Shown here in pieces: positions 2,305 through 57,039 of a DNA stretch of 64,000 nucleotides. The translations under genes and the position numbers were made by a program. Position 1 is the stretch's first letter. Each line of letters starts with the position of its first letter. The notes beneath the pieces were generated by a model. That model ran no database searches. It worked only from the letters and a program-made list of their open reading frames with translations, and had not been told where the DNA came from. Source of the DNA: Naegleria gruberi (lineage: Eukaryota); assembly GCA_000004985.1 (NCBI GenBank), contig GG738866.1; one strand, given 5' to 3'.

Positions 2305-5300
2305 TTATTCATCTTCATGGATTGGAGAGGAGGCTGAAAGTGGACTGGAAGGTGTGTTTGGTAGAGAGCTTGTCAATAAAATGTTATTATCGGATGTATT
2401 GTGTGCAGGAGTGACAAGAGTTGTGTTGATAGATTTTGGAATGATTGTTGGCTGGAACATTTCATCAATGAGGGACAACACTTGCCAATAGTCAGTCTTA
2501 ATGGAAAGATGAGCATTTTCCTCTTTTTGAGTCAACTTGATAAGGAGGTGATATTTAGGAGGGAGAAAGATGAAAATATAATCATTCTGATTCACTGCAA
2601 ATAATTTGTAACTATCCATAACCTCACTCACCTGTGTATTTCTCAATACTTTGACACTTGATACAATTTTAGCATCCTTACAATTCCAAATGGCCTCAAA
2701 GAGTGTCTCTTTAGTGAGATTATCTGGGAGGTCCTTGTCAAAGATTGGTAGGAATAAGTCTTTAAATTCAATGGAAATGTCATTCAATACAGTTTGACAG
2801 TAGGCAGTAGATGGCTCAATAGTAGTCGATTGTGTTGATGATTTAATGCCAGTGAAGGTGGCAGTGACATTAATGAGGCCAGGAAGAGGTTTCAATGGGA
2901 AAAATTTGATGGTGAATAAGTGATCGGATGGGAGAAGGATATCCTCTTCTTGTGAGGTTTTAAGATCGAGTGATGGAAGTTTAATGTATGGAACATTAAT
3001 AAAATTATCAATTCCAACAAATCGATGAGCATCTTCACCTCCAAATGACAACTCAATGCCAACCAATTTGTCCATATCCAAACTGAGAGAGGAAACATTC
3101 ATTGGTGATAACTTGTACTGTAATTGAATTTGATACTTGAAACTCTTCAAATATTTTTCAAAATAAAAGTGGAGAATATGGGAAGAATCGTCCTTTCTCA
3201 AAGATCCCAGATGTGCAGCAGACCCAACCCTGAATGAGTTGGTTTGTTGCTCCAGTGAAAGCTCATGACAAATATTCTTCACAAATGAAACACTGAGAAT
3301 ATTTGGTACTGGAATTGGTTCAGTAATTTCAAAGACATTGCCTGATCCAAGAATTCCATCCTTCTTAATATCCAAATCTGTTTCAAAACCAAAAATACCC
3401 AAAAGTTTCCTCTTATTTGTTACCTGGTTGATTATGTTAAAGTAAAAGCTACTCCTTTGTTTGATTTCCAAACTATTATAATCCTGAATGAGTAGAGTTA
3501 AAATATTATTACTGATTTCCTGTTGTTCTTGCTCAAGGTGGACCTCATCATTTTTGAAACAGGATGGTTCATTACATGCACGATAGACAACCATTCTAAT
3601 GATGGAAAGAACAGAATCTCCATGATGCCAATCACCAAAATTGGCAATGAGCTTGCTCCTCACAAATTTATGAAGACAAGATAACATTTTCTAATAATTT
3701 GCTGAATTAATAATGAAGAAAGAGTATGAAACATACAGTTACTTGATCCTTTCTCAAGTTGTTAATCAGCGCCTCAAAGAGCGAGAAATAATAGCCAAGG
3801 TTTTCATTTGGTAGATTGACTATGTGATCGAATAGTCCATTCACTAATTCATTATTTGAGTCTGTAAAACTTAGTGAATTGATTAATGAAATTGTATAAT
3901 TCAAAATTGGAGAAATTAAAAGATTCAAACTACTTTCTCTTTCCAACATGTCAACCAAAAAGCTAAATATTATATGTTAAATATTTCTAGGCAATTAGAA
4001 CTTACTCCAGGGTTGGTTTGTATTGAGTGGAATTATTTTGATAGGAGAAATAGATGAAATTGAATATAATATCTAAACGAATGTATAATTGTCTTTCAAT
4101 TCTAGAAACATTTGGAGCACTTTCTTCTTGAATTTGTGGCTGCTTGAATGATTTGCTATAGTATTTGGAGAGGGCCTTCATGTAATATCTGTAATCGGCT
4201 ACACAGTCCAGTAAATGTAACATGTTCCTTTTTAGAGAATATGGGTCAATAAATTCATACTTGTTTCAAAACTTACTCCATATCGTTAGTTTTCCTGGTT
4301 GAAATAATTTTGCACTTTTCCTTCTTAATTGGTAGTTCATCAAAATATTTAATTCCAATCTTTTCTGGATTGTTTTGGAAATAAAGTAATTGCTCTCTCA
4401 CATACAAAGGCTGACTATAATCATCCACACTCAATACGTAGTCATCTCTAATATGTTGCTTATTTGAAATGGTATTATGGCAAAATATATGAACCAAATA
4501 CGAGTTGATACTATGTTTGAATTTCCTAAAAACTCGTTTCCAAACATGATCTGGATATTCAGTATCCTTGATAATTTGTGAAATTATTTCAAAAATTGCA
4601 GCTCTTCCCCAAATTGTAAAGATCTGAATATTTTCAATAAGAAAAGTCAAACTATTGACAACTTCTCTCTTTGTCTTGTTTGTTTCCAAATAAATTAAAT
4701 TTGCTAATAAGGTAGAAAATGATTGAAGGGCATGTGAATTCTCAGTCTGACAACACTTCAACACTGTTGGAATAAAATCTGTAATTCTAACATGATAAAA
4801 GTAGAGTATTTCTTGAAGAGAATCTGCTGCCATCTGTCTTTGAAGTCTAAACTGTGAATTATTTACTGTTTTTGAAATATATTGCATCAGAGAAGAAATG
4901 TGATTGGCAATCATTGTTGGATTCACTTGATGTAAATTGTGTGTAATGTACATGGTTGTTATTGTCACTAAAAGTTGAGCATAGGTAATATCATCCACCT
5001 TTCCACTGTTAATTATATTCTGTAAATCTGTTAAATATTCATAAAGCCTTCAGATAATTTAAATTATTTAAATAATAACAAAATAATAAATTTAAATAAT
5101 GAATTATTTAAAATCATATTCCATAAATCAATCCTGAAATTATAAACCTACTTGGGAATATTATTTCTAAACAAGACACTCGAATATTCTTGTAAAAACA
5201 CACAAACATAAATCTTTCGAGCAATTAATTGTTGAGCATCAGTGTACTTTTCCGAATCAATTTTTCCTTCCGAATTTCTACATTGATAATCAACACTTGG

Positions 5301-21107: not shown

Positions 21108-22976
21108 ATGGTAGAACAGAAAAAGAGAAAGAATGAAGACTCAGATTTATTTGTGAAAGAAAAGAAGCAGAAAAATAACGAGCCTTCCTCCGATCATGTT
21201 GGAAATCTTTTCAGTTCATCTTCCAGTTTACTTCGTCCATTTATTTATGAATCCGATCAGTTTCGTTTCTTTGTATTTAAATATCCATCTCCTTGTACCA
21301 AATTAGAATATTCACATGTTTCCAGCAAGTCATTCTTCATCAAAGTTACAATACAAGATGCTATTCCTATTGAAAATATATTAGAAACATTTCCATCAAT
21401 TATTACTAAAGGATTGAAGGAAAATACGAAACCAGAAGAAACTTTGTTGCATTCCGAAGCCATTCCCAACGATGTTTCTGTAGAGAGTATCAAATATGGA
21501 ATGTATAGAATGAAAGGCGATCATCTTGACGATAGGGTTTACATTATCATATTTGAAAAGAGCCAACGAGAAACTAATCTTCCAACACTTGACCATGATT
21601 ATTCCAAATTTATAACAGAATTGACATCCTCATATGGGAAAGAAATATTTTCTGATGATTTACTTTTTGAAATTCTTTCTTATTTAGATCAGAATTCAAT
21701 TATTCTAAATTGTTCCTTAATCTCCAAACAATGGTTGAAAATAATTCAAAAATCCTGTAAATTTAAATTCAAAGTTACAAGTTGGCGTTCTACCAACTTG
21801 ATGGGAGGTATTTTTTCTCCATGTTTTTCACAATTGCGAGTAGATGTTTGCAAGAACAATTTTTGTGACCAAGTGGTAAAGTTGAACAATTTAACAAATA
21901 TCAAATTTAGGACCACTAGTGGTGTTATGGATGTGTTGGATATAATCAAAGAAATGAAGCAAGTAACTTGGCTTGATATGAAGGGAGTGTCTATATTTAA
22001 AGATAGTTTTCTTAAGAAAATTGGTGAGCTGAGTCAATTGAAAACACTCGACATAGCCAATGCTGCTGGTGATAGGAGCAGATTTAGTAAGGGCATAAAA
22101 TATCTGGGAAACTTGATGAATTTATCTGAGCTTTATATCAACTCAAATGAAATTGGTGACAATGGCGCTGAAGATATTAGTGGAATGAAACAATTAACTA
22201 AACTTGACGTTTCTTCAAATGATATTACTACTAAAGGAGCCAAGCACATTAGTAAATTGAACAAACTAGTATCCCTAAAAATGGAGGAAAATATGATCGA
22301 TGCACAAGGAATTAAATATATTACCGATCAATTGAATCAATTAACAGAACTTGATATTGGTTCAAACGATCTTGGTGTATTGGGGGCAAAAGCAGTCAGT
22401 GAATTGTCCCAATTAACGTCACTGAGTATTGAAAACAATAATCTGCTCAACGAAGGAGCTGCTTATATCAGTAGATTACTGAATTTGACTGATCTTTGCA
22501 TTAATTCTAATCAAATTGATAGTGAAGGAGCCAAAGATATTATCAAATTGAAACAATTAACAACACTATTTATATCTGGCAACTCTCTTCTAGATGAAGG
22601 AGCCAAGTTAATTAGTGAGCTAAATAACTTAACCGTACTTGATATTTCAGACAATGAATTAACTGATGAAGGGGTAGAGCCAATCAGTAAATTGAAGCAA
22701 TTGAAGACACTTGAAATTGACGAAAATCAAATTAGTGATGAAGGAATAGAGTCAATTTGTGGACTCAATCAATTAACTGAGCTTAACATTGATTATAATC
22801 TCATATCTGCAGAAGGATTAAGTTCTATAAGCGGGAATGAGATTGGAGATGAAGGTGCAGAGATTATTGGTGACTTGACAAATTTGAAAGAGCTTACAGT
22901 AGACCAGAACTCAAGATCCAAGTACCATGAAATCTTGAAAACAAAATTACCATTATTAACGATCAAGAAAATTTAA
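21108..22976 (+). CDS. F-box/LRR protein (RNI-like leucine-rich repeats)
   Basis: ATG at 21108. F-box 'LLFEILSYLDQNSIILNCSLISKQWLKIIQ'. At least 12 tandem 24-aa LRRs of the form 'LxxLxLxxNxIxDEGAKxIS'. Confidence 0.65.
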   Translation: MVEQKKRKNEDSDLFVKEKKQKNNEPSSDHVGNLFSSSSSLLRPFIYESDQFRFFVFKYPSPCTKLEYSHVSSKSFFIKVTIQDAIPIENILETFPSIITKGLKENTKPEETLLHSEAIPNDVSVESIKYGMYRMKGDHLDDRVYIIIFEKSQRETNLPTLDHDYSKFITELTSSYGKEIFSDDLLFEILSYLDQNSIILNCSLISKQWLKIIQKSCKFKFKVTSWRSTNLMGGIFSPCFSQLRVDVCKNNFCDQVVKLNNLTNIKFRTTSGVMDVLDIIKEMKQVTWLDMKGVSIFKDSFLKKIGELSQLKTLDIANAAGDRSRFSKGIKYLGNLMNLSELYINSNEIGDNGAEDISGMKQLTKLDVSSNDITTKGAKHISKLNKLVSLKMEENMIDAQGIKYITDQLNQLTELDIGSNDLGVLGAKAVSELSQLTSLSIENNNLLNEGAAYISRLLNLTDLCINSNQIDSEGAKDIIKLKQLTTLFISGNSLLDEGAKLISELNNLTVLDISDNELTDEGVEPISKLKQLKTLEIDENQISDEGIESICGLNQLTELNIDYNLISAEGLSSISGNEIGDEGAEIIGDLTNLKELTVDQNSRSKYHEILKTKLPLLTIKKI

Positions 22977-25034: not shown

Positions 25035-26255
25035 TTAATTATTCTTGGTTGCTAATGATTTACAAATGGTTAACAAATCAGATTTTTCCACAATGTGAAG
25101 ATCTGGTTGGAGGAAGACACTTTTGTAATTGCTGGCCATGTAATCCAGGGTTGAACGTAAGAAAGTGTGAGATTGATGTTCCTTAGCAGCACTGTAGAAT
25201 ACAAAAATGTTTTCTGATGAAACAACCTTTCTGAAGAGATTGACACAATATTCAGATAATCCTGGTAACATTAATTGATCTGCCAAAACAAATGTTTCAA
25301 TCAAATGACATGGTCTTACATTTGTAAAACTACTGTACATATAATCCAATGCTGCAACTAGGGCAGGGAATGGAGCAAATGTGTCAACTACAATGGTATT
25401 ATTTACAGAGCTATCGATAAGAGTCTTTAAAAATGGAGATCTAGCAGCAAGGATAGCTTTCAAACATTTGATTTCTCTTCCAGAACTCTTATGAACGACA
25501 GTTAAATCAGCATGCAAACCACTCTTCAAAAGACTTCTATAAAATTTGCTAATTTCTGGAACTTCTTCCTTTTGAACACCTCCTTTTCCACAAATTTTGA
25601 CTGCATCAATTTCTGTCCAACCTCCATTCATACTTAAATCAATTCTAATAGCATTAGTTTTAAATCCTTTTACAGTCAATTCTGGAGCAAAATCTCTTGC
25701 TACATGGATACCATTTGTTGCAGGACCAGACCACAAAGTAACCCATTCATTTGAATTTTCACGTCTTCCACTAATTTTAGTAACAGATCCAGGTGTTGAT
25801 GATTCATAAATATGAACACTATAAACAGACATGACATGATCGTAACCCAATTCAATAAATTCAGGTCCTGTAGTATTATTTGGACACCAAGCAGAGCCAC
25901 TTGATGAATAGGTTGGATAGACCCTACAAGGACCTACCACATTATTGGCATGATAAGATGTTGGATCACCTCTTTAGAAAATAACAATGTCAACATTCCA
26001 TACAAACTGAAAAACAACTTACCCCCAGTAAGAGCTATACGAAATCACAGAAGAAGCCCATTGTTCGGAAGGTCCTACATCTTCTTCCTCTTCTTCATCC
26101 TCTTCATCTCCAAATTTATAGTCATCATAATAATCAGGTGCAATATCCTGCACTCTATACTTGCTATTGACCGATGCTGATGATGAACCTTGTTCTTCTT
26201 CGTTAATCAATACAATAGTCGAATCGTTGTTCTCTCTTCTTGGAATTGGGAGCAT
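25035..26255 (-). CDS. Galactose-binding-like (discoidin / F5-8 type C-like) domain + BTB/POZ domain protein; 2 exons
   Basis: ATG at 26255. Exon 1 ends ...SYSSYWG with phase-2 donor GTAAGT at 26022; intron 25972..26022 (51 nt). Exon 2 continues 'GDPTSYHANNVVGPCRVYPTYSSSGSAWCPNN...NAIRIDLSMNGGWTEIDAVKICG' (F5/8C-like ending). BTB 'ADLTVVHKSSGREIKCLKAILAARSPFLKTLIDSSVNNTIVVDTFAPFPALVAALDYMY'. Confidence 0.55.
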
Positions 26256-26505: not shown

Positions 26506-28323
26506 ATGAGAAAACTTGCCTCGTTTCTTGGTGGTGGTAAATCTTCATCATCAAATGGTTCTTCTTCATCACCTTCAGCATCGGGTACTAGTAATGAAAG
26601 AGTTTCATCCAACAAACAGCAAGGTTCCCTTTCTATAGTAACAACATCATCAATTGGTGTTGCCGTTGGTGATTCTTCATCATCTCCATCATCAAATAAT
26701 AATAACAATGGAAGTAAAACTCCAAGAAGTAATTTCTCTAGATCGACTAGTAATACTAAAATTAATTCTTCATCATCCTCTTCATTGGAAAGGAATAATA
26801 TTGAACAGGAAATTCAAAATATAATTTTTAATACTTCACAAATTAATACACTCTCCAAAGTACCTAATGTTCAACCGGAATATTATTTGAAAATTGTTGT
26901 TTTGGGAGGACCATCTGTTGGAAAATCGGCAATAATTAATAGATATTTGAAAAATAAGGATCATCCTGCTTTATCAGTAACAAAGAGTGGATTGTACATA
27001 CCAACAATAGGAGTCGACATGTATAGTAAGCCTGTTAAGAAATATAGAGATGCTTCGATAACAAAATGTAAATCAATTCAATTTCCAGTGAGATTGACGA
27101 TACTAGATGTTCCACATAGTGAATTTATGAAACAATCAGTGTCAAAATATTTTGAAAATGCACATGGAATAGTGTTAGCTTTTGATGTGACTAATATCAA
27201 GTCAATTAGTGCTATTGATCAGTGGCGATCCAAAATTCCATCACATCTCCTTACAAGTACAGTTTTACTTGCCCATAAAGCCGAGTTAAAGCCACACATT
27301 ATCACTCCAAACTCTCTAGATAATTATGTTAGAGATTCTGGATTATTGGCATGGTTTTCAACATCGATTAGAAATTTCCAATCCATCAATGGAGCATTCC
27401 AATACCTTGTCGATAGAAGTCTGTCAAAATTAATCAAAAAATATCAAGGACTGCCTACATTGAATCATCAAATGAATGCTGTCTCAATGGCTAGAAAATC
27501 TTCATCGATTCCATTGGCAGAATCCAAGTCTGATAACTTGGCCGAGTCTCTTCAATATTCCAATTCTGTAGAATCCAATTCTGATACAGGATCTATTTCT
27601 AAGGATGATTCCAAACAAATAGTGGAAGGATTTTCTACTCTCTACGACATGTTGGAGGACAAGAATCCAAATTTAACAATGGAATTTATAGAAAAATTCA
27701 GAAGTGAAATTACATCTTTTTATTTCCAATTATCAAGCAGATTTAAAGAGTTCAAAGTGGTATGTCAGAGTTGTGACACGAGCTCAAACGATCAAAAGTT
27801 GATGGATCTACTGATAAATGAATGTGATGCTGAAAGAATCATTCTCCTTAACAAATTAGCTCTCGTTGAAAAGGAACTTGTAAAGTGTAATAGTATCTAT
27901 ACGGAAAATAATACTCCCATGAAAAATCTCACCAAACTGTACATTGAACTCAAGAGAGAATTTTATATTGTAAAGATTGAAAAATGGATAAGTTTTTGGT
28001 ATTCCTTAAAATCAAGATTTTGCCTGAGTCAAATTTTCTACAAGGACACCAAACAAGATTGTCAACAATTACCAGAGATTTCGGAATCACTCTACAGCCA
28101 ACCTATCAATCAAAATATTGTAGCCAAACTGGAAAGCAGAAGGGCAAAAATTGAAAAACTCAAACAACATTCCAAAATACAATCTAAAGAAATATCTCAG
28201 AAAGAGGATGAAAATCTTGTAGAGAGTGATAGTACATTCTCTGTTATCAATCAAATTTTCAAAGCAGAAATGTATGTGGACATATTCCCTCAATTAACAG
28301 AACTCAATAAATTAAATAAATAG
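26506..28323 (+). CDS. Atypical Ras/Rab-like (likely pseudo-)GTPase domain protein with Ser-rich N-terminus and coiled-coil C-terminus
   Basis: ATG at 26506. P-loop 'KIVVLGGPSVGKSAIINRY'. Switch-I-like 'PTIGVD'. G3 replaced by 'DVPHSE' (no Gly/Gln). NKxD replaced by 'LLAHKAEL'. 605 aa. Confidence 0.5.
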   Translation: MRKLASFLGGGKSSSSNGSSSSPSASGTSNERVSSNKQQGSLSIVTTSSIGVAVGDSSSSPSSNNNNNGSKTPRSNFSRSTSNTKINSSSSSSLERNNIEQEIQNIIFNTSQINTLSKVPNVQPEYYLKIVVLGGPSVGKSAIINRYLKNKDHPALSVTKSGLYIPTIGVDMYSKPVKKYRDASITKCKSIQFPVRLTILDVPHSEFMKQSVSKYFENAHGIVLAFDVTNIKSISAIDQWRSKIPSHLLTSTVLLAHKAELKPHIITPNSLDNYVRDSGLLAWFSTSIRNFQSINGAFQYLVDRSLSKLIKKYQGLPTLNHQMNAVSMARKSSSIPLAESKSDNLAESLQYSNSVESNSDTGSISKDDSKQIVEGFSTLYDMLEDKNPNLTMEFIEKFRSEITSFYFQLSSRFKEFKVVCQSCDTSSNDQKLMDLLINECDAERIILLNKLALVEKELVKCNSIYTENNTPMKNLTKLYIELKREFYIVKIEKWISFWYSLKSRFCLSQIFYKDTKQDCQQLPEISESLYSQPINQNIVAKLESRRAKIEKLKQHSKIQSKEISQKEDENLVESDSTFSVINQIFKAEMYVDIFPQLTELNKLNK

Positions 28324-33627: not shown

Positions 33628-34757
33628 TCAATAAATAAAGTTGTAATACTTGTTTGTTGCAAGTTCTGGTATTTCCTTCAATAGGTCATTCATGTACTTT
33701 CTATTATTCAAATATTTAGGAGCTATAAATTTTTCCAATGACAGATTTTCCTTACACACTTGGTATGCCTTAACGAGTGACATTTTGAAAATTTCCTCAT
33801 CTTCTCTAAACCAAAAAGGAATCTCATAGATATATTTTGTTTTTTGAATGCATCTCTTAACAATTTCTTCATCCTTTCTAAACTCATAAGGAACAAGGAA
33901 TAGTGGCAAATTCATTCCAACTAATTGATATACCAATTCTCTATTTTCTCTCATTACTTTTGGAAGTTCAGAATAGGCAAAGTAGTTTCTCCTAACAACT
34001 TCCTTAACAAATGAGAAATCATGTTGCAATCTCTCACTAATATATCCAACATTATTTGGAGAGGAAATACATGCTGATAGAGCAATCTGTCTATCATCGA
34101 GCATTTCCTTAGGAAGTTTGTAATATAATATTTTCAATTCTCGAATTTTCACATACAATTCCACAACTTGCTTATCATTTAAATATATTTCTGGAAGTTT
34201 GAATTCAAAATTATGGAAATATGAACTAACACTCTTCAGTACTCTCATTACAATATCTCGATCATTCTTCATTTCATCTGAAAACAATTTATAACATCTC
34301 GGACAAGATGTCACAGCTTTAAGACACACCCTCTTATCCTTCTTCAATTCATCACTCAAATGTACATAAAAGTAACCAAATTGTGAAACTGCTCTAATAG
34401 CAATTCGAATACTATTTCTCAATCGTTCAGAAATTTGCAAAAAAGTGTTTTCACACCTAATAAACCTCAACATGTGCCAAGCCACCAACTCATTATCCAC
34501 ATATTCTTTCGGAATCGTATAGTATCGAGGTAATTTCTTATAAGTATGCTTTCGGAATGATTTTAAAAATTCATACGATTTCTCATAATCATGCAAAAAT
34601 CGTTCCGATGCTTGTTTCCAAATGTTTTTCAATAGATTGGAAAGATTATCTGAATCAGAATGTGTATACTCATCATGATCATTTTTATTTGATCGGGTTG
34701 TGGTGGTGGTGGTGGTGGGCGGTGATGGGAGAAAATCATAGAGAATGAGTTGGACCA
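33628..34757 (-). CDS. DUF4116-repeat protein
   Basis: First true ATG at 34757 (track start at 34803 is ATT). Repeats 'ELKKDKRVCLKAVTSCPRCYKLFSDEMKNDRDIVMRVLKS', 'LDDRQIALSACISSPNNVGYISERLQHDFSFVKEVVRRNYFAYSELPKVMRENRELVYQLV'. Poly-Thr tract near N-terminus. Confidence 0.55.
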
Positions 34758-35118
34758 TTTTTTTTTGTAATGCAACTCGAATTTGCACTTTATATTGTGT
34801 CAATATTTATTTGAAACAATTTAAAGTCAAATGTGTTTTTGGTGTGAAAATCAATTTTTTGATTACCATTGATTCTGATAATGTTTAGTATTTTGAAATG
34901 GAAAAGGTTTATGGAGTGATACATGGAATGGTATTAGAATCTTGTGATTGGAATTTCATGAATTGTTACTCACAATTTCTTTCTTGCAAGTTCACACTTC
35001 TCACAGATTTATACTAGAAAGTTGAACCAACAGGTATTAATACATAATTTACATCTATCCCTCTTTAAAAATCATCCCTCAAAAACAACCAACCCAATCA
35101 AATACTTTACAAAAAAAA

Positions 35119-36043
35119 ATGAAACAAGATCAATGCACTGTTGCTCCTTCACCATCATCCTTGTGTGAAAGTGGTGGATTGTTTCCTGCAGAAATTTGGG
35201 TCCACATTCTTTCCTATCTACCTTCACCGTATATTCCGAATAGTGAGAATAATTCCGATCAAGAATTCAGAAAACAAGTTTTGGAATGGAATCAACTGAG
35301 AGAGAAATCATCCTCTATTTATTATGCTTGTAAATTTGCTATAATGGAGATGGATTTATCTTCATGGTTTCGTATGGATTTGAAAGAAATTGAGACGGCT
35401 TCCAAGTCAATTATACTACCTGGAGTAAAGAGAATAACTTATGAGGAAAATTTTCAAAAGAGATTTTCCAAAGAGAAAGGAGTTAATCCAATTTAATGCA
35501 ACTCAAATGGGTAAGATAATGATGAGACAGGAAAGTGCGTTTCAAATTATCTTGAATGGATTGGCTAATGGTTTTGCAAATGTGAAAAAGTTAAATCTCG
35601 ATGGATGGTACTTTTTGAAAGAGGAAGAATTGCAGAAAATTTGTGAAAATTTGAAATGTTTGGAGAGTTTATCCATTGTCAAATGTCAGAGAATTAGGGA
35701 TTTGGAATTGAGTAAGATTTCTAATCTGAATAATTTGAGAATTCACATCAATCAAATCAAATTAAGAATTAATATTGAAAGGAAAACAAGACAACAAAAT
35801 TTCAACATTGATATAGTTGATGGATTTTCCTTATTTTTCAAAACTTTGGATGGTTTTGGATTTTCAGAGCAATATCATTATTTATACTTTATTAAGGATA
35901 TGAAACCCTTATTGGAAAAGAGAATGGGAGTTTCATGGGAGAAGATTCGGTTCATCTTTGCTGGAAAGGAAATTGAGAATGAAAGAAGATTTGCTGATTA
36001 CTGTGTCTGCAAGGATAGTACCGTGCACGTTATTAAAAGGTAG
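35119..36043 (+). CDS. F-box / LRR / C-terminal ubiquitin-like domain protein; 2 exons
   Basis: ATG at 35119. F-box 'LFPAEIWVHILSYLPSP'. ORFs 35119..35496 and 35441..36043 overlap in different frames; a 49-nt phase-0 intron 35425..35473 (GTAAAG...CCAAAG) joins them: ...SIILPG|RKELIQFNATQMGKIMMRQESAF.... C-terminus 'MKPLLEKRMGVSWEKIRFIFAGKEIENERRFADYCVCKDSTVHVIKR' matches the ubiquitin fold pattern. Confidence 0.5.
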
Positions 36044-36148: not shown

Positions 36149-38099
36149 ATGAACTCCCATATCACCACTCTCATTCTCGTCGATTTCAAAATTGACACGA
36201 TCAACAACCAACTGCACAACTTGTTGAGGAATAAATTTTCCAATCAACAAAAAGGAAGACTTGTCTATTTAGAAAACAGAGAAAAATCATACAATTTTAT
36301 TCCGATAGAATTTACCAGAGATTTGGCATTTGTTTTGAAAATATTGGAAAGATTGAACGAGTATAATTCGTGTTGTACATTTGAAGAGTTGCTCAATCAT
36401 ATTCCGAATGGAATTTTACAAAATCCCAAAAGTTATTGCAAAATTATGTCAAATTTACATTGAAAAGTTTGGTTGTTTGGGAAATCAGTGGAATAATTTC
36501 ACACAATTATTTGCAAATAATAGAGAAATGGTCCTTGAAATTCTCAAATTGAATCCAAGTGCACTTCGATTTGTGTCGGCTGAATTTCAGAATGATTATG
36601 AGATTGTAATGACTGCTGTGAAAGTGAATGGATTTTCATTGAAATATGCTTCAGATATATTGAAGGGAAATAGACAAGTTGTAACTCAAGCTGTGATGAC
36701 TGATGGATTTGCACTTGATTTTGCATCTAGTGAATTGATGAATGATATAGATTTACAGAAAATGGCTATTCGAAACAATCCTAATATGTTTTCATGTCTT
36801 GTGAACAAGCTAACCATTTTTGAAATTGAAAATGAAGTTCTTGAACTTGCTCTTCATTTACATGGAAAATCCCTAGCTCTAATTCCAAACACTTTTCACA
36901 ATTACAGAGATCTTGTTTTACTAGCTGTCAAGAATGATGGTAAAGCTCTTTCACATGCCACAGAAACTTTGAAAGCAGATAGAGAAATTGTATGGGAAGC
37001 TGTATCTCAGAATGGCTTTGCATTATTCTATGCCTCTCCTGAACTCAAGAAGGATAGAGAAATTATTCTAAAAGCTCTAGAAACTTCGAGCACTTGCTAC
37101 CTCTCCTTGCCGATTGATTTTCAAGAAGATTTGGAAATTATTCAGCAAACTCTTCGGTATTTCCCCAATGCTCTTCAATTTATTCGTTCCACAAATTTGG
37201 ATATCCAATTCCTCACTTCTGTGGTAGAGAAAAATCCTCTCCTACTTAAGTATGCGTCTAGAGTGCGTAAGGATAAGAATTTAGTATTGAAATCAGTTGA
37301 ATTGGATGGCAATAATCTTCAGTATGCTGATTCGGAATTGAGACAAGATCCTGAATTGATCTTGAAAGCAGCTCAGCAAAATATTAAATCACTCGTATTT
37401 GCCAAAAATATGGGAAAGGAGCTCTTAATAGAGTTATCTGAAATGAATGGATTTTTACTTGATTATGTATGGAATCAACTTGGAGAATTAAAGACAGACA
37501 GAGATTTTATAATAGCCTGTCTCAAAAGAAATGGAAGGAACTTTATAGTTCTCGATCAATCAATGAGGGATGATAGAGAAATACTCAATATTGCATTAGA
37601 AACTTTTGGAACAGCCCTATACTATTCTGATAAGAGGTTTAGATATGAGTATGAGATGGTAAAGAAGGCGGTTCGAGATAGTCCCGATATTCATACCTCC
37701 ATTCCACGAGTTGTTATTGACAGAGAAATTGTCAAAACGATTCTTTCTGTAAAGGGGATTTTGTTTCATGAATTTTACAGGTTTAATAATGATATTGAGC
37801 TTGTCATGACAGCCGTCAAACAAAATGGGAAGAGTTTTAAATATGCCAGTGAAAATATAGTAAGGGATCCAGAGGTGCAGACGCTAGTTGTAAAAGAAAG
37901 TGGGTTTTGCTTTCAACCAAATGCAGAACTATTTCAATCACGAATGGAACATTGTTACTTTGGTGCTTATCAATATGAACATTTACCATTCTATCCATTC
38001 AATAATTATCCAATGGAATATTTCTACAGTTACAACACATACAATTCAGAAGTTAGATTACCAGATTACAGTGAACTTTTAAAACCTTTACAAAAATAA
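36149..38099 (+). CDS. DUF4116-repeat protein (more than 10 repeats); probably 2 exons
   Basis: ORFs 36149..36463 and 36381..38099 overlap in different frames. A phase-1 58-nt intron 36375..36432 (GTACAT...CCAAAAG) or a 97-nt intron 36371..36467 would join them. Repeats 'AEFQNDYEIVMTAVKVNGFSLKYASDILKGNRQVVTQAVMTDGFALDFASSELMNDIDL', 'LKADREIVWEAVSQNGFALFYASPELKKDREIILKA', among others. Confidence 0.5.
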
Positions 38100-39751: not shown

Positions 39752-40228
39752 TTTTTTGAAATATGAAAATCAACTTCAAAATTGAGAAATCAAAAATTCT
39801 TCTCAAGATGCATCATGATTTTTGATCAGGAAATTCCTTCAAAACTTAATAGCAAACACCTCATTCTTTCAATACCATTTCCAACCCATCACTCTCTTAA
39901 TGCTATTCTGAAAATATTACACCTCCTCTCCATTCAGAACACTTTACAATAAATATTTTCCAAGTGTTCATCATGTTCTTTTTTTCATTTGTGAGATGGA
40001 ACTTCACAAGTGAAGCTTCTGCTAATGGTGATGAACAAGTTTTCTCTCTCGCGATCAAAGTTAAAAATACACTCGCCGTGCTGAACATGCTTGCAAAAAT
40101 AATCAAGAAAAAATTGGTCGACGAGAACAAGCTATTTCCTCACAGTTTGAAGAAGCATACTTTAAAATCGTCATCATCATTAATTGTTGTACATTGTATT
40201 ATTATTTATTTGTTATATTACTTTGAAG

Positions 40229-41857
40229 ATGTCCTATATTCTCTCACCAATTTCACCATCACCTGTCGAATTTCCTGATGAATCAAAGTGGAAGGAAAGA
40301 CAAGATCGTCAATTGCGTTTGTGGGGAGTTCACGGTCAAGCTAGAATTGATTCTGCTCAAGTTTGTCTTTTGAATGCCACTGCTGTTGGTTGCGAAGTTT
40401 TGAAGAATATTGTTCTTCCAGGTTTTGGAAGCTTTTCTGTTGTTGATGCTCAAAAGGTCACTCCAAGAGATTTGGGAAGAAACTTTTACTTGAGAAAATC
40501 GGATTTGGAAAGAAATAGAGCTGAAGCTGTCTCTGAAATTATTGCAGAATTGAATCCAGAAGTTAAAGGTCAATTCCTTGCTGAAGATCCACTTGTTGTC
40601 ATTGAAAAATCACCAGAATTCTTTGATCAATTCAATTATATCATTGCTTCACAAATGCCTATGCATCACGTTGAAAAATTGGCCAAATATTGTCATGAAA
40701 AGAACAAGATCCTTGTTGCTGTTCGTTCATATGGTATGATCGGCTATTTACGTATCTTTACAAAGAGCCACACTATTGTTGAAGCTAAATTAGATACTCA
40801 AATTGATGATTTACGTATCACAAAACCATGGTTGGACTTTTTAAAGTTCTGTGATCTCCAAGAATTGGATGCTATGGATAATAATGCCCTCGCTCACACT
40901 GCCTACCCAATCTTGTTGGTCAAGGCTTTACAACAATGGAAATCATCTCACAATAACCAATTACCACAATCAAGAGCTGACAAGGAAGAATTCCAAAATA
41001 CTATCAAGGGTCTTTCCAAGTCATGGACCATGTTGACAAACTTTGAAGAAGCTTTAGATAAGGCTCACTTTTGTTATTCTGAACCACAAATTCCAGACTC
41101 TGTTAGTGCTGTTTTCAATGATGAACTTTGCACAAATTTGACAAAGGAATCTGATGATTTCTGGGTTATGGCTGCCTCTGTTAAAAAGTTTGTTGAAAAT
41201 GAAGGACAAGGTTTATTACCACTTCAAGGACGTGTTCCAGATATGCAATCTGATACTGAACGTTATGTTAAAATGCAATCACTTTTCAGAAAGAAGGCTC
41301 GTGCTGATATGGAAATTGTTAAAAAGTACATGAAGGAATTTTTGACACAAGTTGGTAGACCAGAAGATTCCATTCCAGAAATGGATCTTAAGGAATTCTG
41401 TAAAAATGCTTACTACTTGCGTGCAATTCATTTCAGATCTTTGGAACAAGAACTAAAGTCACCAAACAAGGAAGAAATTCAATCACACATGCAATGGAAT
41501 GAAGATTCAACCATGCCATTCTATGTCTGTTTCCGTGCCATTGATAGATTCTTGGAAAAGAAGGGATACTACCCAGGTCAAGAAGATGAAAATGTTGAAG
41601 CTGACACTGTTGAATTGAGAAAGATTGTTGATGAATTGCTTGTTGAATTTGGTGTTTCCGAATCTTGTCATGATATGGATAAGTATGTTGGTGAAATGGT
41701 CAGATATGGTGGTTGTGAACTCCATAATATTTCATCATTGATGGGAGGTGTTGCTGGTCAAGAATTGATCAAGTTGTGTACCAGACAACGTATTCCTGTT
41801 AATAATACTTGGGTCTTCTCTGGTATCAAGTCAATTTCGATTGCTTTTGAAGCATAA
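40229..41857 (+). CDS. NAE1: NEDD8-activating enzyme E1 regulatory subunit (APP-BP1/ULA1 homologue)
   Basis: ATG at 40229 verified. Length and sequence co-linear with human NAE1 recalled from memory: 'RQLRLWGVHGQARIDSAQVCLLNATAVGCEVLKNIVLPGFGSFSVVD' vs '[47 protein letters not shown]'. 'YGMIGYLRIFTKSHTIVE'. C-terminus 'NNTWVFSGIKSISIAFEA'. Confidence 0.85.
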   Translation: MSYILSPISPSPVEFPDESKWKERQDRQLRLWGVHGQARIDSAQVCLLNATAVGCEVLKNIVLPGFGSFSVVDAQKVTPRDLGRNFYLRKSDLERNRAEAVSEIIAELNPEVKGQFLAEDPLVVIEKSPEFFDQFNYIIASQMPMHHVEKLAKYCHEKNKILVAVRSYGMIGYLRIFTKSHTIVEAKLDTQIDDLRITKPWLDFLKFCDLQELDAMDNNALAHTAYPILLVKALQQWKSSHNNQLPQSRADKEEFQNTIKGLSKSWTMLTNFEEALDKAHFCYSEPQIPDSVSAVFNDELCTNLTKESDDFWVMAASVKKFVENEGQGLLPLQGRVPDMQSDTERYVKMQSLFRKKARADMEIVKKYMKEFLTQVGRPEDSIPEMDLKEFCKNAYYLRAIHFRSLEQELKSPNKEEIQSHMQWNEDSTMPFYVCFRAIDRFLEKKGYYPGQEDENVEADTVELRKIVDELLVEFGVSESCHDMDKYVGEMVRYGGCELHNISSLMGGVAGQELIKLCTRQRIPVNNTWVFSGIKSISIAFEA

Positions 41858-42295: not shown

Positions 42296-42763
42296 ATGTT
42301 CATTCCAAGCGAAAGCCGTGTTGCTGTTATGCAATACTTGTTCAAGGAAGGTGTTGTCGTCGCCAAGAATGATTTGAGATTAAAGTCTCACCCACACATT
42401 GAAGGTGTTAAGAATTTGCACGTCGTCAAATTCATGCAAGGTTTCGCTGCTAGAGGTTTGGTTAAGCAACAATATGCTTGGAGACATTACTATTGGTTCT
42501 TGACTAACAATGGTGTCAACTTCTTGAGAGAATACTTGAACTTGCCAACCACTGTCGTCCCAGCTACCCACAAGATGACTGGTAAGAAGATCCAAATCAT
42601 CAGCACTGATAGACCAAAGAAGCAATTCAAGGCTGGCGAAAGACCACAATACAGAAATGACAGAAAGACTGCTCCAAAGGAAGGTGAAACCGCTGTCCCA
42701 CAAGGAACTGCTACTGAAAAGCCAAAGACTGGTGGTAGAGGTAAAGGATTCCAACAACAATAA
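42296..42763 (+). CDS. RPS10: 40S ribosomal protein S10 (eS10)
   Basis: ATG at 42296. 'FKEGVVVAKNDLRLKSHPHIEGVKNLHVVKFMQGFAARGLVKQQYAWRHYYWFLTNNGVNFLREYLNLPTTVVPATHK'. Strongly biased high-expression codons (GGT, TTG, AGA, CCA, AAG, TTC, GTC). Confidence 0.9.
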   Translation: MFIPSESRVAVMQYLFKEGVVVAKNDLRLKSHPHIEGVKNLHVVKFMQGFAARGLVKQQYAWRHYYWFLTNNGVNFLREYLNLPTTVVPATHKMTGKKIQIISTDRPKKQFKAGERPQYRNDRKTAPKEGETAVPQGTATEKPKTGGRGKGFQQQ

Positions 42764-42930: not shown

Positions 42931-44058
42931 ATGTTTCATTCCATCTTCTCATATTTGTGGTGGATTTTCCCAACCCGATCCGAAAATCTTTATGCATCTT
43001 TATTGAAGAATAGCATTGATGAGAATGACTTCAAAGCAGGAATATTGGAAAGTCTCTCATTGGATATTGTGATCGAGATTATATCCTTTCTCGATCGGTT
43101 TGAATTTATCAGATTGTTTTCAGGAGTGAATAAATCCTTCTATTCATTAACAGAGGATAAAAGATTCTGGTTAATATTAGACCGTCATGATGAGAAAATT
43201 CCTACTGTTACACAACCAAATTCAAACTTCCAACCAATACTATGTTTTTCAAGAATTGAAGAATATCTCAAATCTTCTGAAAAGACAAGTTTCAAAACCA
43301 TTTACAAGAACCTTCTCCTCTCCCCTACCCCACACGAATTGAATCCAGTCTTTAAAAATCGTTCTGCAATTTATAATGTTGACACAGATCTCATTCCTGA
43401 AACAAAGAAATATATTGCCCTCTTTGGACAATCAAATTCTGGAAAATATTCTCTGGGAATTTGCTCTACGAGAGGTTATTCAAGGCCTAGTGATCAGAAG
43501 AGTGTTATCAAGATGGATTTCTTCTTCAAAAGAGTACTGATCAAGATGGAAAATCTATCCTCTCATCATAATGGAAATATTAGTGGAATATGCCATACGA
43601 ATTTTGTAATTGAATGTTTTGGACATCCTGATTTTCATTTGAAATTTAGAAATAATGGAATGGTTAGCATGAATAGTTTATCACTGGGTAGTAGTCTTTC
43701 AATCATGTTTACAATTGATTTATCAGTGAAAAATAATTATTTTCTCTCTGATTTATCCAAAATTTTGAATCCTTTATTTCAAGTTGATATTTCCAAAGAT
43801 TCTCCTCAGAAAATTAGAAAGAAAATGGGTAATAATAGACTCTGTATAATTGGAACCAAGAGTGATATTAGACAATTGAGTGAACAATCTCTGGCAAGTC
43901 AACTGATGAAAGTTATTGACACAAGTTGTGAATTTTGGGATCAATCCATCATTTACATTGAAACAAGTTCCAAAAATCGTGAAAATATGGATCATCCCTA
44001 TCTATTCTTTTCTCAATCCAACATTCATTCCCAAATCCAACCAAACTCATCCCTGTAA
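42931..44058 (+). CDS. F-box protein with degenerate P-loop GTPase-like domain
   Basis: ATG at 42931. F-box 'LDIVIEIISFLDRFEFIRLFSGVNKSFYSL'. P-loop-like 'ALFGQSNSGKYSLG'. 'CIIGTKSD' in the NKxD position. 'ETSSKN' in the SAK position. No DxxG. Confidence 0.5.
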   Translation: MFHSIFSYLWWIFPTRSENLYASLLKNSIDENDFKAGILESLSLDIVIEIISFLDRFEFIRLFSGVNKSFYSLTEDKRFWLILDRHDEKIPTVTQPNSNFQPILCFSRIEEYLKSSEKTSFKTIYKNLLLSPTPHELNPVFKNRSAIYNVDTDLIPETKKYIALFGQSNSGKYSLGICSTRGYSRPSDQKSVIKMDFFFKRVLIKMENLSSHHNGNISGICHTNFVIECFGHPDFHLKFRNNGMVSMNSLSLGSSLSIMFTIDLSVKNNYFLSDLSKILNPLFQVDISKDSPQKIRKKMGNNRLCIIGTKSDIRQLSEQSLASQLMKVIDTSCEFWDQSIIYIETSSKNRENMDHPYLFFSQSNIHSQIQPNSSL

Positions 44059-47764: not shown

Positions 47765-48795
47765 ATGTCAAAACTTGAAAAACTTTCCTTTCAATTTTTT
47801 GATAAATTACCAGAAGAAATTTTGAGTGAAATTGGGAATTTTCTATTGCTTGGTGAATTTCACAAGTGGATGTTGGTGAATCGAATAGTATATCAGAAAC
47901 TTTGTTCCGATGCTTGTTATTCGAAATTTTATTGGAGGGAAATTAAGTATCATTGCAATGCAGATGAGAAGAAATATGTAATTTACAATCCAGTAACTTT
48001 AGAATATCACTCTAATGTGCATTCACTTTATTCTATTTATGGAAAAGTTTCGTCTAATTTTCGATATCATCTCTTGCAGTTTAAAAAGGAAATTTCGAAT
48101 AACAAACCCAACTTTTCATTCACTCCCATTGAGAACATGATGGAAATCAATCCAAAACTCCAAAAATCATTAGAAAAAGATGAATTTCCAGGATATGGAA
48201 AGATTTGCCTTATTGGAAACTCAACATGTGGCAAAACTTCACTTTATTGGAGAGTTCATACTCGAGAATTTCAAGAAACTTTTTGGTATACTTCAGATAA
48301 TCCCAATTTAGTGTATGAAAATTTTCTGATGTCATTGTGGGACCTTCCCTGTAGAGATGGGTAAGTTTCGTTTTATTTAGAATATTTTGAGATTAATCTC
48401 AATCAAGATATGATCAATTGAGAACTTTGTCGTATCCAGAAGCACACTTGGCTCTCGCTTGCTTTTCACTTGTGGACAGAGATTCATTCGATTCTATTCG
48501 AAACAAGTGGATTCATGAATTGAGATTCCACTTGAAAGATACTCCAATTATTCTGGTTGGTTGTAAACATGATTTAAGAGAAGAAATCATCAAATCATCA
48601 ACACATCAAGATAACCAATCAATTGTAACAAGTGAGGAAGCAGAGGAATTCGCCAAAAGTTTCGGATTTATATCCTATTGGGAGAATTCCTCTAAAAGTG
48701 GATTTGGGATGAAGAATTTTATGGAAATTTTAGTAAATGGGTGCACCTATCAACCGAATATTGTAAAACCAAAGAAAAAGTGTTTAATTCAATAA
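47765..48795 (+). CDS. F-box + Rho-family small GTPase fusion protein; 2 exons
   Basis: ATG at 47765. F-box 'LPEEILSEIGNFLLLGEFHKWMLVNRIVYQKL'. G1 'KICLIGNSTCGKTSL'. Exon 1 ends WDLPCRDG + phase-2 GTAAGT at 48362; 46-nt intron 48362..48407 joins in frame to 'YDQLRTLSYPEAHLALACFSLVDRDSFDSIRNKWIHELRFHLKDTPIILVGCKHDLRE...ENSSKSG'. Co-linear with Rho '[28 protein letters not shown]...PIILVGTKLDLRD...ECSA'. Confidence 0.65.
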
Positions 48796-48880: not shown

Positions 48881-49732
48881 ATGTCACCACACAATGATTA
48901 CACTACCATTCCAATAGAAGAATCAGAGATTAATTTACATTACTCACAAACTAATTCTTCCGAAACATTAAATTCATCATTATTAAATCTCCCGCCAGAA
49001 TTATTAACATTAATTATTGAATATTTATCAAATGATAATGTTGCACTGCTGTCATTCGAATTACTCGGAATAACTGCACGAGAAGTAATGAATAATCAAG
49101 TGTGGGAAAAATTATTTAGAAATCAACAAATTTCGTCCAAGTTTTTGGGTTTCGACTGGTTTATTTTACCGAATCAGTATCTTGTTGAACTGGTCAAGAG
49201 AAAATCAGAAAATCCACACAAAATTGCATTTTATTATCATTTCTACATGAATGGAATTATTACACAATTTCTAGATTATGAAATTTCGGATATAATTTAC
49301 AATTTCAGATATTCGAATAGAAGTAACGTATTTCAAATTGAAAAATCATTAATCCCATTAAGGAAATATTTTGAAGAAATGAATAGGTTTCATTTCTATT
49401 CAAATAGAAGACCAATTAATATTTTACTTTACAAAACTCAATTAGAAATTGAAATGAAACGTTGGATTAATTTCAAGAAGAAACCAGGCGAAATACTTCA
49501 CCAATACCGTCGCCACACCTATACCTCTTGCTTTATCCTCCTAGTAGTAAGCCCAATTATTGGAATTGGCTCTTTAGGAATGATTTTGGTTGGTGGAATT
49601 AGTTTCAAATATCCAACGTTTAATTCAGAACTTGGCGCCATCTCACTCATCATTATTGGATGTTTCATTTTGTTGATATCAGTTGTGGGATTACTTGTTT
49701 CAACCAAGTACATTTGTTCTTACAGAGATTAA
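48881..49732 (+). CDS. F-box protein with C-terminal double transmembrane tail
   Basis: ATG at 48881. F-box 'LPPELLTLIIEYLSNDNVALLSFELLGITAREVMNNQVWEKLF'. C-terminal 'FILLVVSPIIGIGSLGMILVGGISF...AISLIIIGCFILLISVVGLLV'. Confidence 0.5.
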   Translation: MSPHNDYTTIPIEESEINLHYSQTNSSETLNSSLLNLPPELLTLIIEYLSNDNVALLSFELLGITAREVMNNQVWEKLFRNQQISSKFLGFDWFILPNQYLVELVKRKSENPHKIAFYYHFYMNGIITQFLDYEISDIIYNFRYSNRSNVFQIEKSLIPLRKYFEEMNRFHFYSNRRPINILLYKTQLEIEMKRWINFKKKPGEILHQYRRHTYTSCFILLVVSPIIGIGSLGMILVGGISFKYPTFNSELGAISLIIIGCFILLISVVGLLVSTKYICSYRD

Positions 49733-55881: not shown

Positions 55882-57039
55882 TTAATCACTGAAACATACA
55901 CTAGCGTGATATTCATAGAATTGATAAAGAACTACTTCGAAGGGATTTTCCATATTGTTGGGATTGACAATTAAGGAAATAATATAGCTATCAATGGCAT
56001 CACCTAAAAGTTGTGAATTGAAGGATCGTTCAACTTTCATAAATGTTGTGTAACTTGTAATGTTTGGATCTTCATTCCATTTCGCCTTTGTATTTTCATT
56101 AAATTCGTCCAAAATTTCCAAAGTGTTCAAGTTATAAGGACAACATTCAGCAATGTTATCGTAAAATGTAATTCGATGAAGATCATGCACATAGTAATTG
56201 ATTCGAAATAGAAAGTTCAACATCATTTGAAGAAGGTATTGATTGTGTAAAATTCCACATTCATGACATGTCAAAACTAGTTCTCTAATCCAATGAATGA
56301 AATTTTTAGCACCTTTCATTTGGTTTCCATTGGAAGGGGCAACTTCAAATTGATTATACGAAAGGCAAATTACATTTCTCACTAAATTGTGTTCGTATGA
56401 AGTGTCATCATTGGGGATGCCAACGAGCTCTGTACAATTCTCATTATGGTAGAAACCCTCTTCCAACTTTTGAATGAGAATATATTCAGAACGATTCTTT
56501 TTGTTTCTTCCTGTAAACAGTTGGTCAGCTGAGGAAAATTTTAATCCCAAATGATTACTATATCCTTCGTCATCACATTCCTGATGCCAAACCATTGAAT
56601 AATCTGCAAAATAATTTAAATTACCTATCTCTACATCCTTAGAATTATTCCTCTTGGTCACATTAATGCAATCACAAAGTATCCACTTGCTCATTTGAAA
56701 AATCTTATCATTTTCTATATTGAATGAAGGTTTACATTTGTAAAACTTGAATTCATAACGAGGAATCATCATTCCTTCATTAATAGCTGCAACACATTTA
56801 GAAAGAAACACAATAAATGGCATTGCACGTTGGTAATCAATCAAATGATGATCAATCTTCAAGTTTTCTGAGTGAGAATTATTCAAACTCTTGTTTAAAT
56901 GTTGAAAGTACAAATAAAAGTGTTTTGTAATTAAATCTCTCCATTCTGTGCACACGAATTTGCAATTTAAAATTTGTTTCCATGATAAATAGCCATCAAA
57001 TAGAATGGTCAGCAGAATGTCCTGATTGTTGGCTATCAT
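55882..57039 (-). CDS. F-box-like protein with Cys/His-rich body
   Basis: ATG at 57039 verified. 'DILLTILFDGYLSWKQILNCKFVCTEWRDLITKHFY'. 385 aa. Confidence 0.5.
   Translation of the reverse strand: MIANNQDILLTILFDGYLSWKQILNCKFVCTEWRDLITKHFYLYFQHLNKSLNNSHSENLKIDHHLIDYQRAMPFIVFLSKCVAAINEGMMIPRYEFKFYKCKPSFNIENDKIFQMSKWILCDCINVTKRNNSKDVEIGNLNYFADYSMVWHQECDDEGYSNHLGLKFSSADQLFTGRNKKNRSEYILIQKLEEGFYHNENCTELVGIPNDDTSYEHNLVRNVICLSYNQFEVAPSNGNQMKGAKNFIHWIRELVLTCHECGILHNQYLLQMMLNFLFRINYYVHDLHRITFYDNIAECCPYNLNTLEILDEFNENTKAKWNEDPNITSYTTFMKVERSFNSQLLGDAIDSYIISLIVNPNNMENPFEVVLYQFYEYHASVCFSD

Follow-up and report, generated by a model that had tools for sequence, protein, structure and literature searches.

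Within a 64,000-nucleotide stretch of Naegleria gruberi DNA (contig GG738866.1; hereafter the window), the gene NAEGRDRAFT_67209 (positions 42931-44058, plus strand; one exon, 375 residues plus stop; hereafter the target) encodes an F-box protein whose C-terminal G domain, judged from its homology to small GTPases combined with the loss of catalytic and Mg2+-ligand residues, is a pseudoGTPase, i.e., a G-domain fold without the residues required for nucleotide binding or hydrolysis. On the same kind of evidence the ancestry of the target is Rab, yet the protein is not a member of the Rab family. Together with a few metagenomic relatives it makes up what, from alignment, is a small heterolobosean-type family of one shared architecture. 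We propose, with a probability of about 0.6, that the F-box sits on Skp1 of the Skp1-Cul1-F-box (SCF) ubiquitin ligase and that partners are bound by the dead, Rab-derived G domain, so that the protein would act as an SCF substrate receptor.

The open reading frame (ORF) is 100% identical to the annotated protein, which the databases name 'F-box domain-containing protein' or list as hypothetical, and for which no Pfam domain is on record. The DNA of the window is AT-rich and eukaryotic (~33% GC), and the gene lies between an RPS10-like ORF, whose end is at 42763, and an unrelated ORF that begins near 44330. Relatives were sought with HMMER, exhaustively, in 1.84 billion cluster representatives, among which the family comprises four or five sequences, all metagenomic except the target itself: i) P0002 (331 aa; E=7e-19 to the target), of the same architecture; ii) P0003 (136 aa; E=2e-5), a fragment; iii) P0004 (295 aa; E=1.4e-4), which covers target residues 256-362; and iv) P0005 (744 aa; E=2.5e-4), whose match is confined to the F-box. 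A word-indexed homolog search returned only the target itself when queried with the target, and only the target and P0004 when queried with the family profile; no additional relatives came from two metagenome scans and two prokaryote-genome scans with family patterns, although these were pattern-limited and are therefore weak negatives. P0002, which lies on a 1.5-kb Joint Genome Institute (JGI) contig, is 34% identical to the target overall and carries an F-box (1.7e-7 to 4e-7) followed by the motifs GIEKSGKF, TKSD and ETSAK. The intact ORF, together with a relative that shares the same motif pattern at 34% identity, points to purifying selection on NAEGRDRAFT_67209.

The F-box of the target (residues 39-81; 43045-43173, plus strand, as are all other features of the gene) matches Pfam PF00646 at E=5e-5, with 23.5 bits against a gathering score of 20.5, and includes LDIVIEIISFLDRFEFIRLF at residues 44-63. 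A family profile of the N-terminal region matched F-boxes in the PDB that are known to be Skp1-bound, i.e., those of FBXW7 (1.4e-5), Skp2 (2e-4) and FBXO4 (1.6e-3), and Skp2 was also matched (5.5e-4) by the profile built from the target and P0002. A short, strongly aromatic start precedes the F-box in both the target (MFHSIFSYLWWIF; 42931-42969, read from the sequence and its alignment with P0002) and P0002 (MWAWLASFF, residues 1-9), and is absent from P0006, the relative described below. Between the F-box and the G domain lies a linker (residues 82-159; 43174-43407), delimited from the family alignments and from the comparison of the target-P0002 profile with P0006 by hhalign, in which the motif S[FW][KR]T/RxY is kept across the family (SFKTIY in the target, residues 120-125).

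Residues 160-362 (43408-44016) form, according to profile-profile comparison, the Rab-derived pseudoGTPase domain. A preliminary description, made from the letters of the window alone, had claimed that a degenerate G domain of the Ras superfamily follows an F-box, and both parts of this claim are borne out: beside the Pfam match of the F-box, comparison with Ras-type families by hhalign aligned the target-P0002 profile with a profile of 12 ordinary Rabs at 96.5-97% (E=7e-10 to 1e-10) over 150 columns, spanning target residues 163-362 from G1 through G5. The score of this alignment was 72, while shuffling the columns of the query 40 times led to a mean of 13.3 (standard deviation 2.4) and a maximum of 22.8. 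Against smaller profiles the values were 54-92% (four 2-sequence Rab profiles) and mostly 33-89% (single Rabs). Moreover, the ordered triple of G....GK, [NT]K.D and S[AS]K with Ras-like spacing was seen only once when the target was shuffled 20,000 times with its composition preserved, and when the target alone was compared with PDB sequences (E<=10), the only match was Rab43, in the G4-G5 segment and in the correct register (E ~0.25).

A second line of evidence comes from P0006. P0004 proved to be an N-terminally truncated call, starting at an internal Met within the F-box, of a 341-aa ORF (L001:4863-5888), which is identical to the cluster member P0006 save for two residues and lies on a eukaryote-like contig where it adjoins an IscS-type gene. 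P0006 has an F-box (1e-9), the conserved linker and a G domain that matches Pfam Ras at 4e-19. Its G1-G3 region is that of an intact Rab (GPSKCGKS, TIGLEF, then WDTAGDQRFRSITQSYYRG), with the Rab signature stretches IGLEF, KIEVWDTAGDQ, RFRSIT and YYRGL, while LKKE and QSVH are what is left of its G4 and G5. In the PDB it matches Rab1A/Ypt1 best (5e-17), its best 60 matches are all Rabs, and its closest database relatives are ordinary Rabs (Rab30-like, Rab8/Rab1 and YptV1); against a single Rab it scored E=2e-17, and against Rho1 E=2e-6. The target-P0002 profile in turn aligned with P0006 at 98.3% in hhalign, over 275 columns that run through F-box, linker and G domain. P0006, as read from these alignments, is a bridge between the target and ordinary Rabs, combining the same F-box and linker with intact Rab G1-G3. 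Across the family, the best profile and sequence matches are Rabs (Rab1/Ypt1, Rab30, Rab8 and Rab43).

At the nucleotide site, the strings quoted in the preliminary description are in place (GQSNSGKY at residues 166-173, TKSD at 309-312 and ETSSKN at 344-349, as well as LDIVIEIISFLDRFEFIRLF in the F-box), and the lack of a DxxG that it had remarked on extends to the whole protein, in which D..G occurs nowhere. In the G1 or P-loop remnant GQSNSGKY (43426-43449), as aligned with P0002 and the Rabs, Gly and Lys are retained, but the Mg2+-binding Ser/Thr is replaced by Tyr in the target and by Phe in P0002 (GIEKSGKF), and GxxxxGK[ST] is not matched. At the switch I or G2 position, hhalign and MAFFT place KSVIKMDF (43498-43521) opposite Rab ATIGVDF, with the invariant Thr changed to Val in the target and to Pro in P0002. 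In the G3 region (43612-43662) the two methods differ: the position of Rab WDTAGQ is taken either by ECFG (residues 228-231, ECFG-H; MAFFT) or by FRNNGM (residues 239-244, RNNG-M; hhalign). Neither placement retains the Asp or the catalytic Gln, both retain one Gly, and P0002 has ECNG or TSKG. Thus all three Mg2+ ligands are replaced in the target and in P0002 alike. Since the P-loop Ser/Thr, the switch-I Thr, the G3 Asp and the catalytic Gln have all been replaced, Mg2+ coordination and hydrolysis should be gone; on these substitutions, GTP hydrolysis and Mg2+-dependent binding by the target G domain are very unlikely.

On the other hand, the guanine-base half of the site is preserved. G4 (TKSD; 43855-43866) is intact and identical in P0002, while P0006 and P0003 have LKKE; G5 (ETSSKN, the SAK motif; 43960-43977) is likewise intact, with ETSAKD in P0002 and EQSVHS in P0006. 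Both conform to the [NT]KxD and SAK patterns, in a register that matches Rab43 and the Rab consensus, and Lys310, Glu344 and Ser346 are invariant in 4/4 family members. With its Mg2+ ligands gone but G4 and G5 kept in common with P0002, the domain that the preliminary description took to be probably nucleotide-free may instead bind guanine nucleotide without Mg2+. Decay has therefore run in opposite directions in the two clades: the target and P0002 keep G4/G5, while P0006 and P0003 keep G1-G3. The loss of the other half of the site in the sister clade suggests that, across the family, the constraint to run a GTPase cycle has been lifted. Neither the target nor P0002 has the Rab signature stretches (IGVDF, KLQIWDTAGQE, RFRSIT and YYRGA in the consensus of 12 Rabs). 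The segment expected to form helix alpha1 contains Gly in both (YSLGICS in the target, FCYGGIT in P0002), and the C-terminal prenylation Cys is absent, the proteins ending in ...IQPNSSL (target), ...KEQIL (P0002) and ...LMQHR (P0006). Unlike Rabs, then, the target is without the G1 Ser/Thr, the G2 Thr, the G3 Asp, the catalytic Gln and the prenylation Cys, and it has an F-box and three insertions.

These are the long insertions that had been noticed earlier. One of 25 residues (201-225; 43531-43605), in the beta2/beta3 hairpin, is without counterpart in P0002, P0006 or the Rabs and is modelled with low predicted local distance difference test (pLDDT) values; one of ~19 residues in the alpha3-beta5 loop (284-302; 43780-43836) is family-wide, with the invariant Gln293 inside it; and one of ~10 residues in the alpha4 region is common to the relatives. 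An unspliced in-frame intron was considered as the origin of the 25-residue insertion and rejected: the sole nearby in-frame GT..AG candidate (43504-43545, donor GTTATC) leaves the insertion in. Two AlphaFold2 (AF2) models were built. In a model of the full-length target from the 4-sequence family alignment, residues 270-345 reach a pLDDT of 57-75 and are arranged as alpha-beta-alpha-beta, in keeping with the C-terminal half of a G domain. A model of residues 135-375 from an alignment of the family and Rabs reached a pLDDT of 63 and a predicted template modelling (pTM) score of 0.63. In both runs the segment after the P-loop, the expected alpha1, was modelled as a strand with low confidence.

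In the mechanism that we favor, the N-terminal F-box would dock on Skp1 of the SCF (Cul1) ubiquitin ligase. The C-terminal domain would be the descendant of a Rab-type GTPase in which the GTPase switch was lost but not the fold or the motifs for the guanine base, TKSD and ETSSK; proteins, possibly former Rab partners, would bind to the surface of this dead G domain and be presented to the SCF core for ubiquitination, as in FBXO4. Human FBXO4 (Fbx4; PDB 3l82, 3l2o and 9jkb) has the kind of design that we propose for the target: an F-box, a linker and an atypical small-GTPase-like substrate-binding domain. Its 'atypical small GTPase domain' binds TRF1, leading to SCF-dependent degradation (PMC7086354). 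The family profile, however, matched FBXO4 at F-box positions 40-86 alone (E=1.6e-3), and FBXO4 is absent from the whole-protein profile matches at E<=1. Therefore the resemblance to FBXO4 is one of design and, probably, fold, without demonstrable homology.

Other fusions of this kind are known. RhoBTB joins a Rho domain to BTB (Cul3), and Rab40 joins a Rab to a SOCS box (Cul5). They share with the target a Ras-superfamily domain fused to a cullin-RING ligase module, but differ from it in having a BTB or SOCS box rather than an F-box, in the cullin and in the domain order, and are likened to it by design only. The FRP proteins of Euglenozoa such as TbFRP consist of FYVE, F-box and Rab-like GTPase domains, and their F-box has no established function; the authors of the TbFRP study tie the F-box, as speculation, to rapid turnover of the GTPase, and report no N. 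gruberi ortholog (PMC3593210). Compared by description, the target resembles TbFRP in having the F-box upstream of a Rab-related G domain, and both organisms belong to Discoba; in contrast to FRP with its N-terminal FYVE, no FYVE was found in the target (Pfam, E<=10), and neither the exhaustive search with the target nor a word-limited search with P0006 turned up an FRP-like protein. Effectors with both Rab and F-box domains have also been described from Legionella (bioRxiv 10.1101/350777). These are bacterial, and the two pattern-limited scans of prokaryotic genomes with the family patterns found no relative. A literature search on pseudoGTPases combined with F-boxes retrieved nothing.

Several results weigh against the substrate-receptor reading. 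The target alone matched Pfam PF00071 (Ras) at E=0.004-0.014 (15.4-17.2 bits), under the gathering score of 21.6 and restricted to profile positions 95-153, so the GTPase call is carried by profile evidence and not by the single sequence. Searched with HMMER against the PDB, the target-P0002 profile found Rabs only at E ~0.5; hence the sensitivity of profile-profile comparison, or the bridge provided by P0006, is needed for the GTPase signal. The full-length AF2 model is, as a whole, unusable (pLDDT 37). The model of residues 135-375 had no Foldseek match in the PDB at E<=1e-3, although most of the weak top matches were GTPases, and since Rabs were part of its input alignment, that model is supporting, partly circular evidence and no independent test. 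The target and P0002 have both kept TKSD and ETS[SA]K, which could mean that a nucleotide is still bound and that the domain is not a purely passive binding module. The exhaustive HMMER search found no protein from other sequenced Naegleria species, and with no ortholog detected there the gene may be fast-evolving and dispensable. Finally, a literature search for the locus tag NAEGRDRAFT_67209 found no paper.

Other explanations were weighed. In one, which we consider possible if unlikely, the G domain would still bind nucleotide as a Mg2+-independent, GTP- or GDP-locked pseudoGTPase that needs the nucleotide for partner binding, and the F-box would either couple the nucleotide state to SCF or make the protein short-lived, in the manner suggested for TbFRP by its authors, who linked its F-box to rapid GTPase turnover (PMC3593210). 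G4 and G5 that are identical or nearly so in the target and P0002 at 34% identity, the retained Gly and Lys of the P-loop, and the invariance of Lys310, Glu344 and Ser346 in all four members compared would fit such a state; it sits poorly with the replacement of all three Mg2+ ligands in both proteins, with a Gly-containing alpha1 segment that both AF2 runs turn into a strand (at low confidence), and with the loss of G4/G5 in P0006 and P0003, by which the family overall is not constrained to bind guanine. Alternatively, the gene could be a fast-evolving, lineage-restricted relic, an F-box-Rab fusion drifting to loss whose motifs are mere leftovers. The rarity of the family, with four or five members in 1.84 billion representatives and none from other sequenced Naegleria, the decay of different halves of the nucleotide site in different clades, and the target-specific 25-residue insertion with its low model confidence all speak for drift. 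But a frame of 375 open codons at 33% GC is unexpected for a dead gene, the score of the F-box has remained above the Pfam threshold, and P0002 (34%) and, across the modules, P0006 share the architecture and many core residues with the target; we regard this alternative as improbable. That the P-loop-like strings are due to chance, the C-terminal region having an unrelated fold, is scarcely credible: the sub-threshold Pfam Ras score of the target alone, the Foldseek result and the low confidence of the family-only AF2 model would agree with it, but the motif triple in 1/20,000 shuffles, an hhalign score of 72 against a shuffle maximum of 22.8, the transitive link through P0006 with its Pfam-significant Ras domain, and Rab43 as the only PDB sequence match of the target, in correct register, do not.

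A further alternative was raised by the preliminary description, in which the target and a nearby F-box-Rho gene form one local family, descended from a common F-box-GTPase ancestor (e.g., by nearby duplication), the target having then degenerated. The neighbor lies 3.7 kb away on the same strand (47765-48360 joined to 48408-48795); splicing of its 47-nt GT..AG intron (48361-48407) restores ...WDLPCRDGYDQLRTLSYPE... and gives a protein of 327 aa. It is a genuine Rho: its G domain matches Pfam Ras at 2.9e-25, its best PDB match is Rho1 (1.2e-27), every one of its best 60 matches is a Rho, Rac or Cdc42, and the protein closes with a CAAX box, CLIQ. Damage to its G3 (WDLPCRDG), which has neither the Gly nor the catalytic Gln, probably leaves it GTPase-deficient as well. 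The F-box ascribed to it did not hold up equally well: the N-terminus (LPEEILSEIGNFL...) is F-box-like by eye, but neither Pfam (E<=10) nor the PDB search detected an F-box, and hhalign against the family F-box gave 11% (E=0.0026). Residues 23-81 of the neighbor (window 47765-47905) also match 6mwm_A, an 81-aa 'Non-structural protein 3' chain (E=5.5e-4, 23 bits), probably by chance or composition.

Besides the short distance and the shared strand, two similarities of the proteins could be enlisted for common origin: each has an LPxEIL-type N-terminus ahead of a G domain whose G3 is damaged (DLPC in the neighbor), and BLAST aligned them weakly but collinearly at the P-loop and G4-G5 (E=0.1-0.2). 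However, the neighbor is a canonical Rho and the target family is Rab-derived. The target-P0002 profile scored 1.6% (E=0.03) against the neighbor, 0.7% against fungal Rho1 and 5.2% against a 2-sequence Rho profile, as compared with 54-92% against pairs of Rabs, i.e., it is not closer to Rho; P0006 matched the neighbor by BLASTP only at E=0.019 with 24% identity; and in tblastn searches of the window with the target and with the neighbor, each matched itself alone. With a Rho neighbor, a Rab-leaning target and no F-box detected in the neighbor, the two genes share a design at most and no recent common origin, and we consider a local family highly improbable.

A Rab-derived pseudoGTPase behind an F-box is a second, apparently independent design of the FBXO4 type, in a distant eukaryotic lineage, and together with RhoBTB, Rab40 and TbFRP it supports the view that GTPase folds have been repeatedly wired into cullin-RING ligases. 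The reciprocal decay of motifs in the two clades offers a small natural series on what constrains a G domain after loss of the switch. No new principle is involved, and the base is four or five sequences, read from sequence alone. A more specific version, which we offer as a doubtful speculation, is that the family independently reinvented the FBXO4 design from a Rab and that the face of the dead Rab for effectors, GTPase-activating proteins (GAPs) or guanine nucleotide exchange factors (GEFs) targets proteins of the Rab pathway for degradation; its members would then record pseudoGTPase evolution in progress, in clades with opposite motif losses. In a wider version, the family could be the missing Naegleria counterpart of euglenozoan FRP. 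F-box-Rab fusions would in that case date back to the ancestor of Discoba, and the Legionella Rab-F-box effectors might derive from them.

The window contains a third GTPase-like gene (26506-28323, plus strand; 605 aa), with a Ser/Asn-rich N-terminus, a Rab-like G domain at residues 129-304 and a tail of ~300 aa. Its G domain matches Pfam Ras at 5e-16 and Rabs at 98.9% in hhalign; G1 is intact (GGPSVGKS), while G3 (DVPH), G4 (HKAE) and G5 (SIR) are decayed, and no specific similarity to the target family was found. Genes of the ubiquitin system are frequent within the 64 kb. Domain searches placed an F-box-leucine-rich repeat (LRR) protein at 21108-22976 (plus strand; F-box 7.7e-6), a BTB protein at 25035-25940 (minus strand), an ORF with LRR and ubiquitin domains at 35441-36043 (plus strand), a protein with a weak F-box and a hydrophobic C-terminus at 48881-49732 (plus strand) and an F-box-like protein at 55882-57039 (minus strand; 2e-4); an E1-like protein of the ThiF family (40184-41857, plus strand) lies ~1 kb upstream of the target. 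On either side of the LRR-ubiquitin ORF are proteins with DUF4116 repeats (33628-34803, minus strand, E=1e-32; 36381-38099, plus strand, E=5e-110), and at 2305-3687 (minus strand) a candidate AP-5 beta subunit carries AP5B1 middle and C-terminal domains (1e-10).

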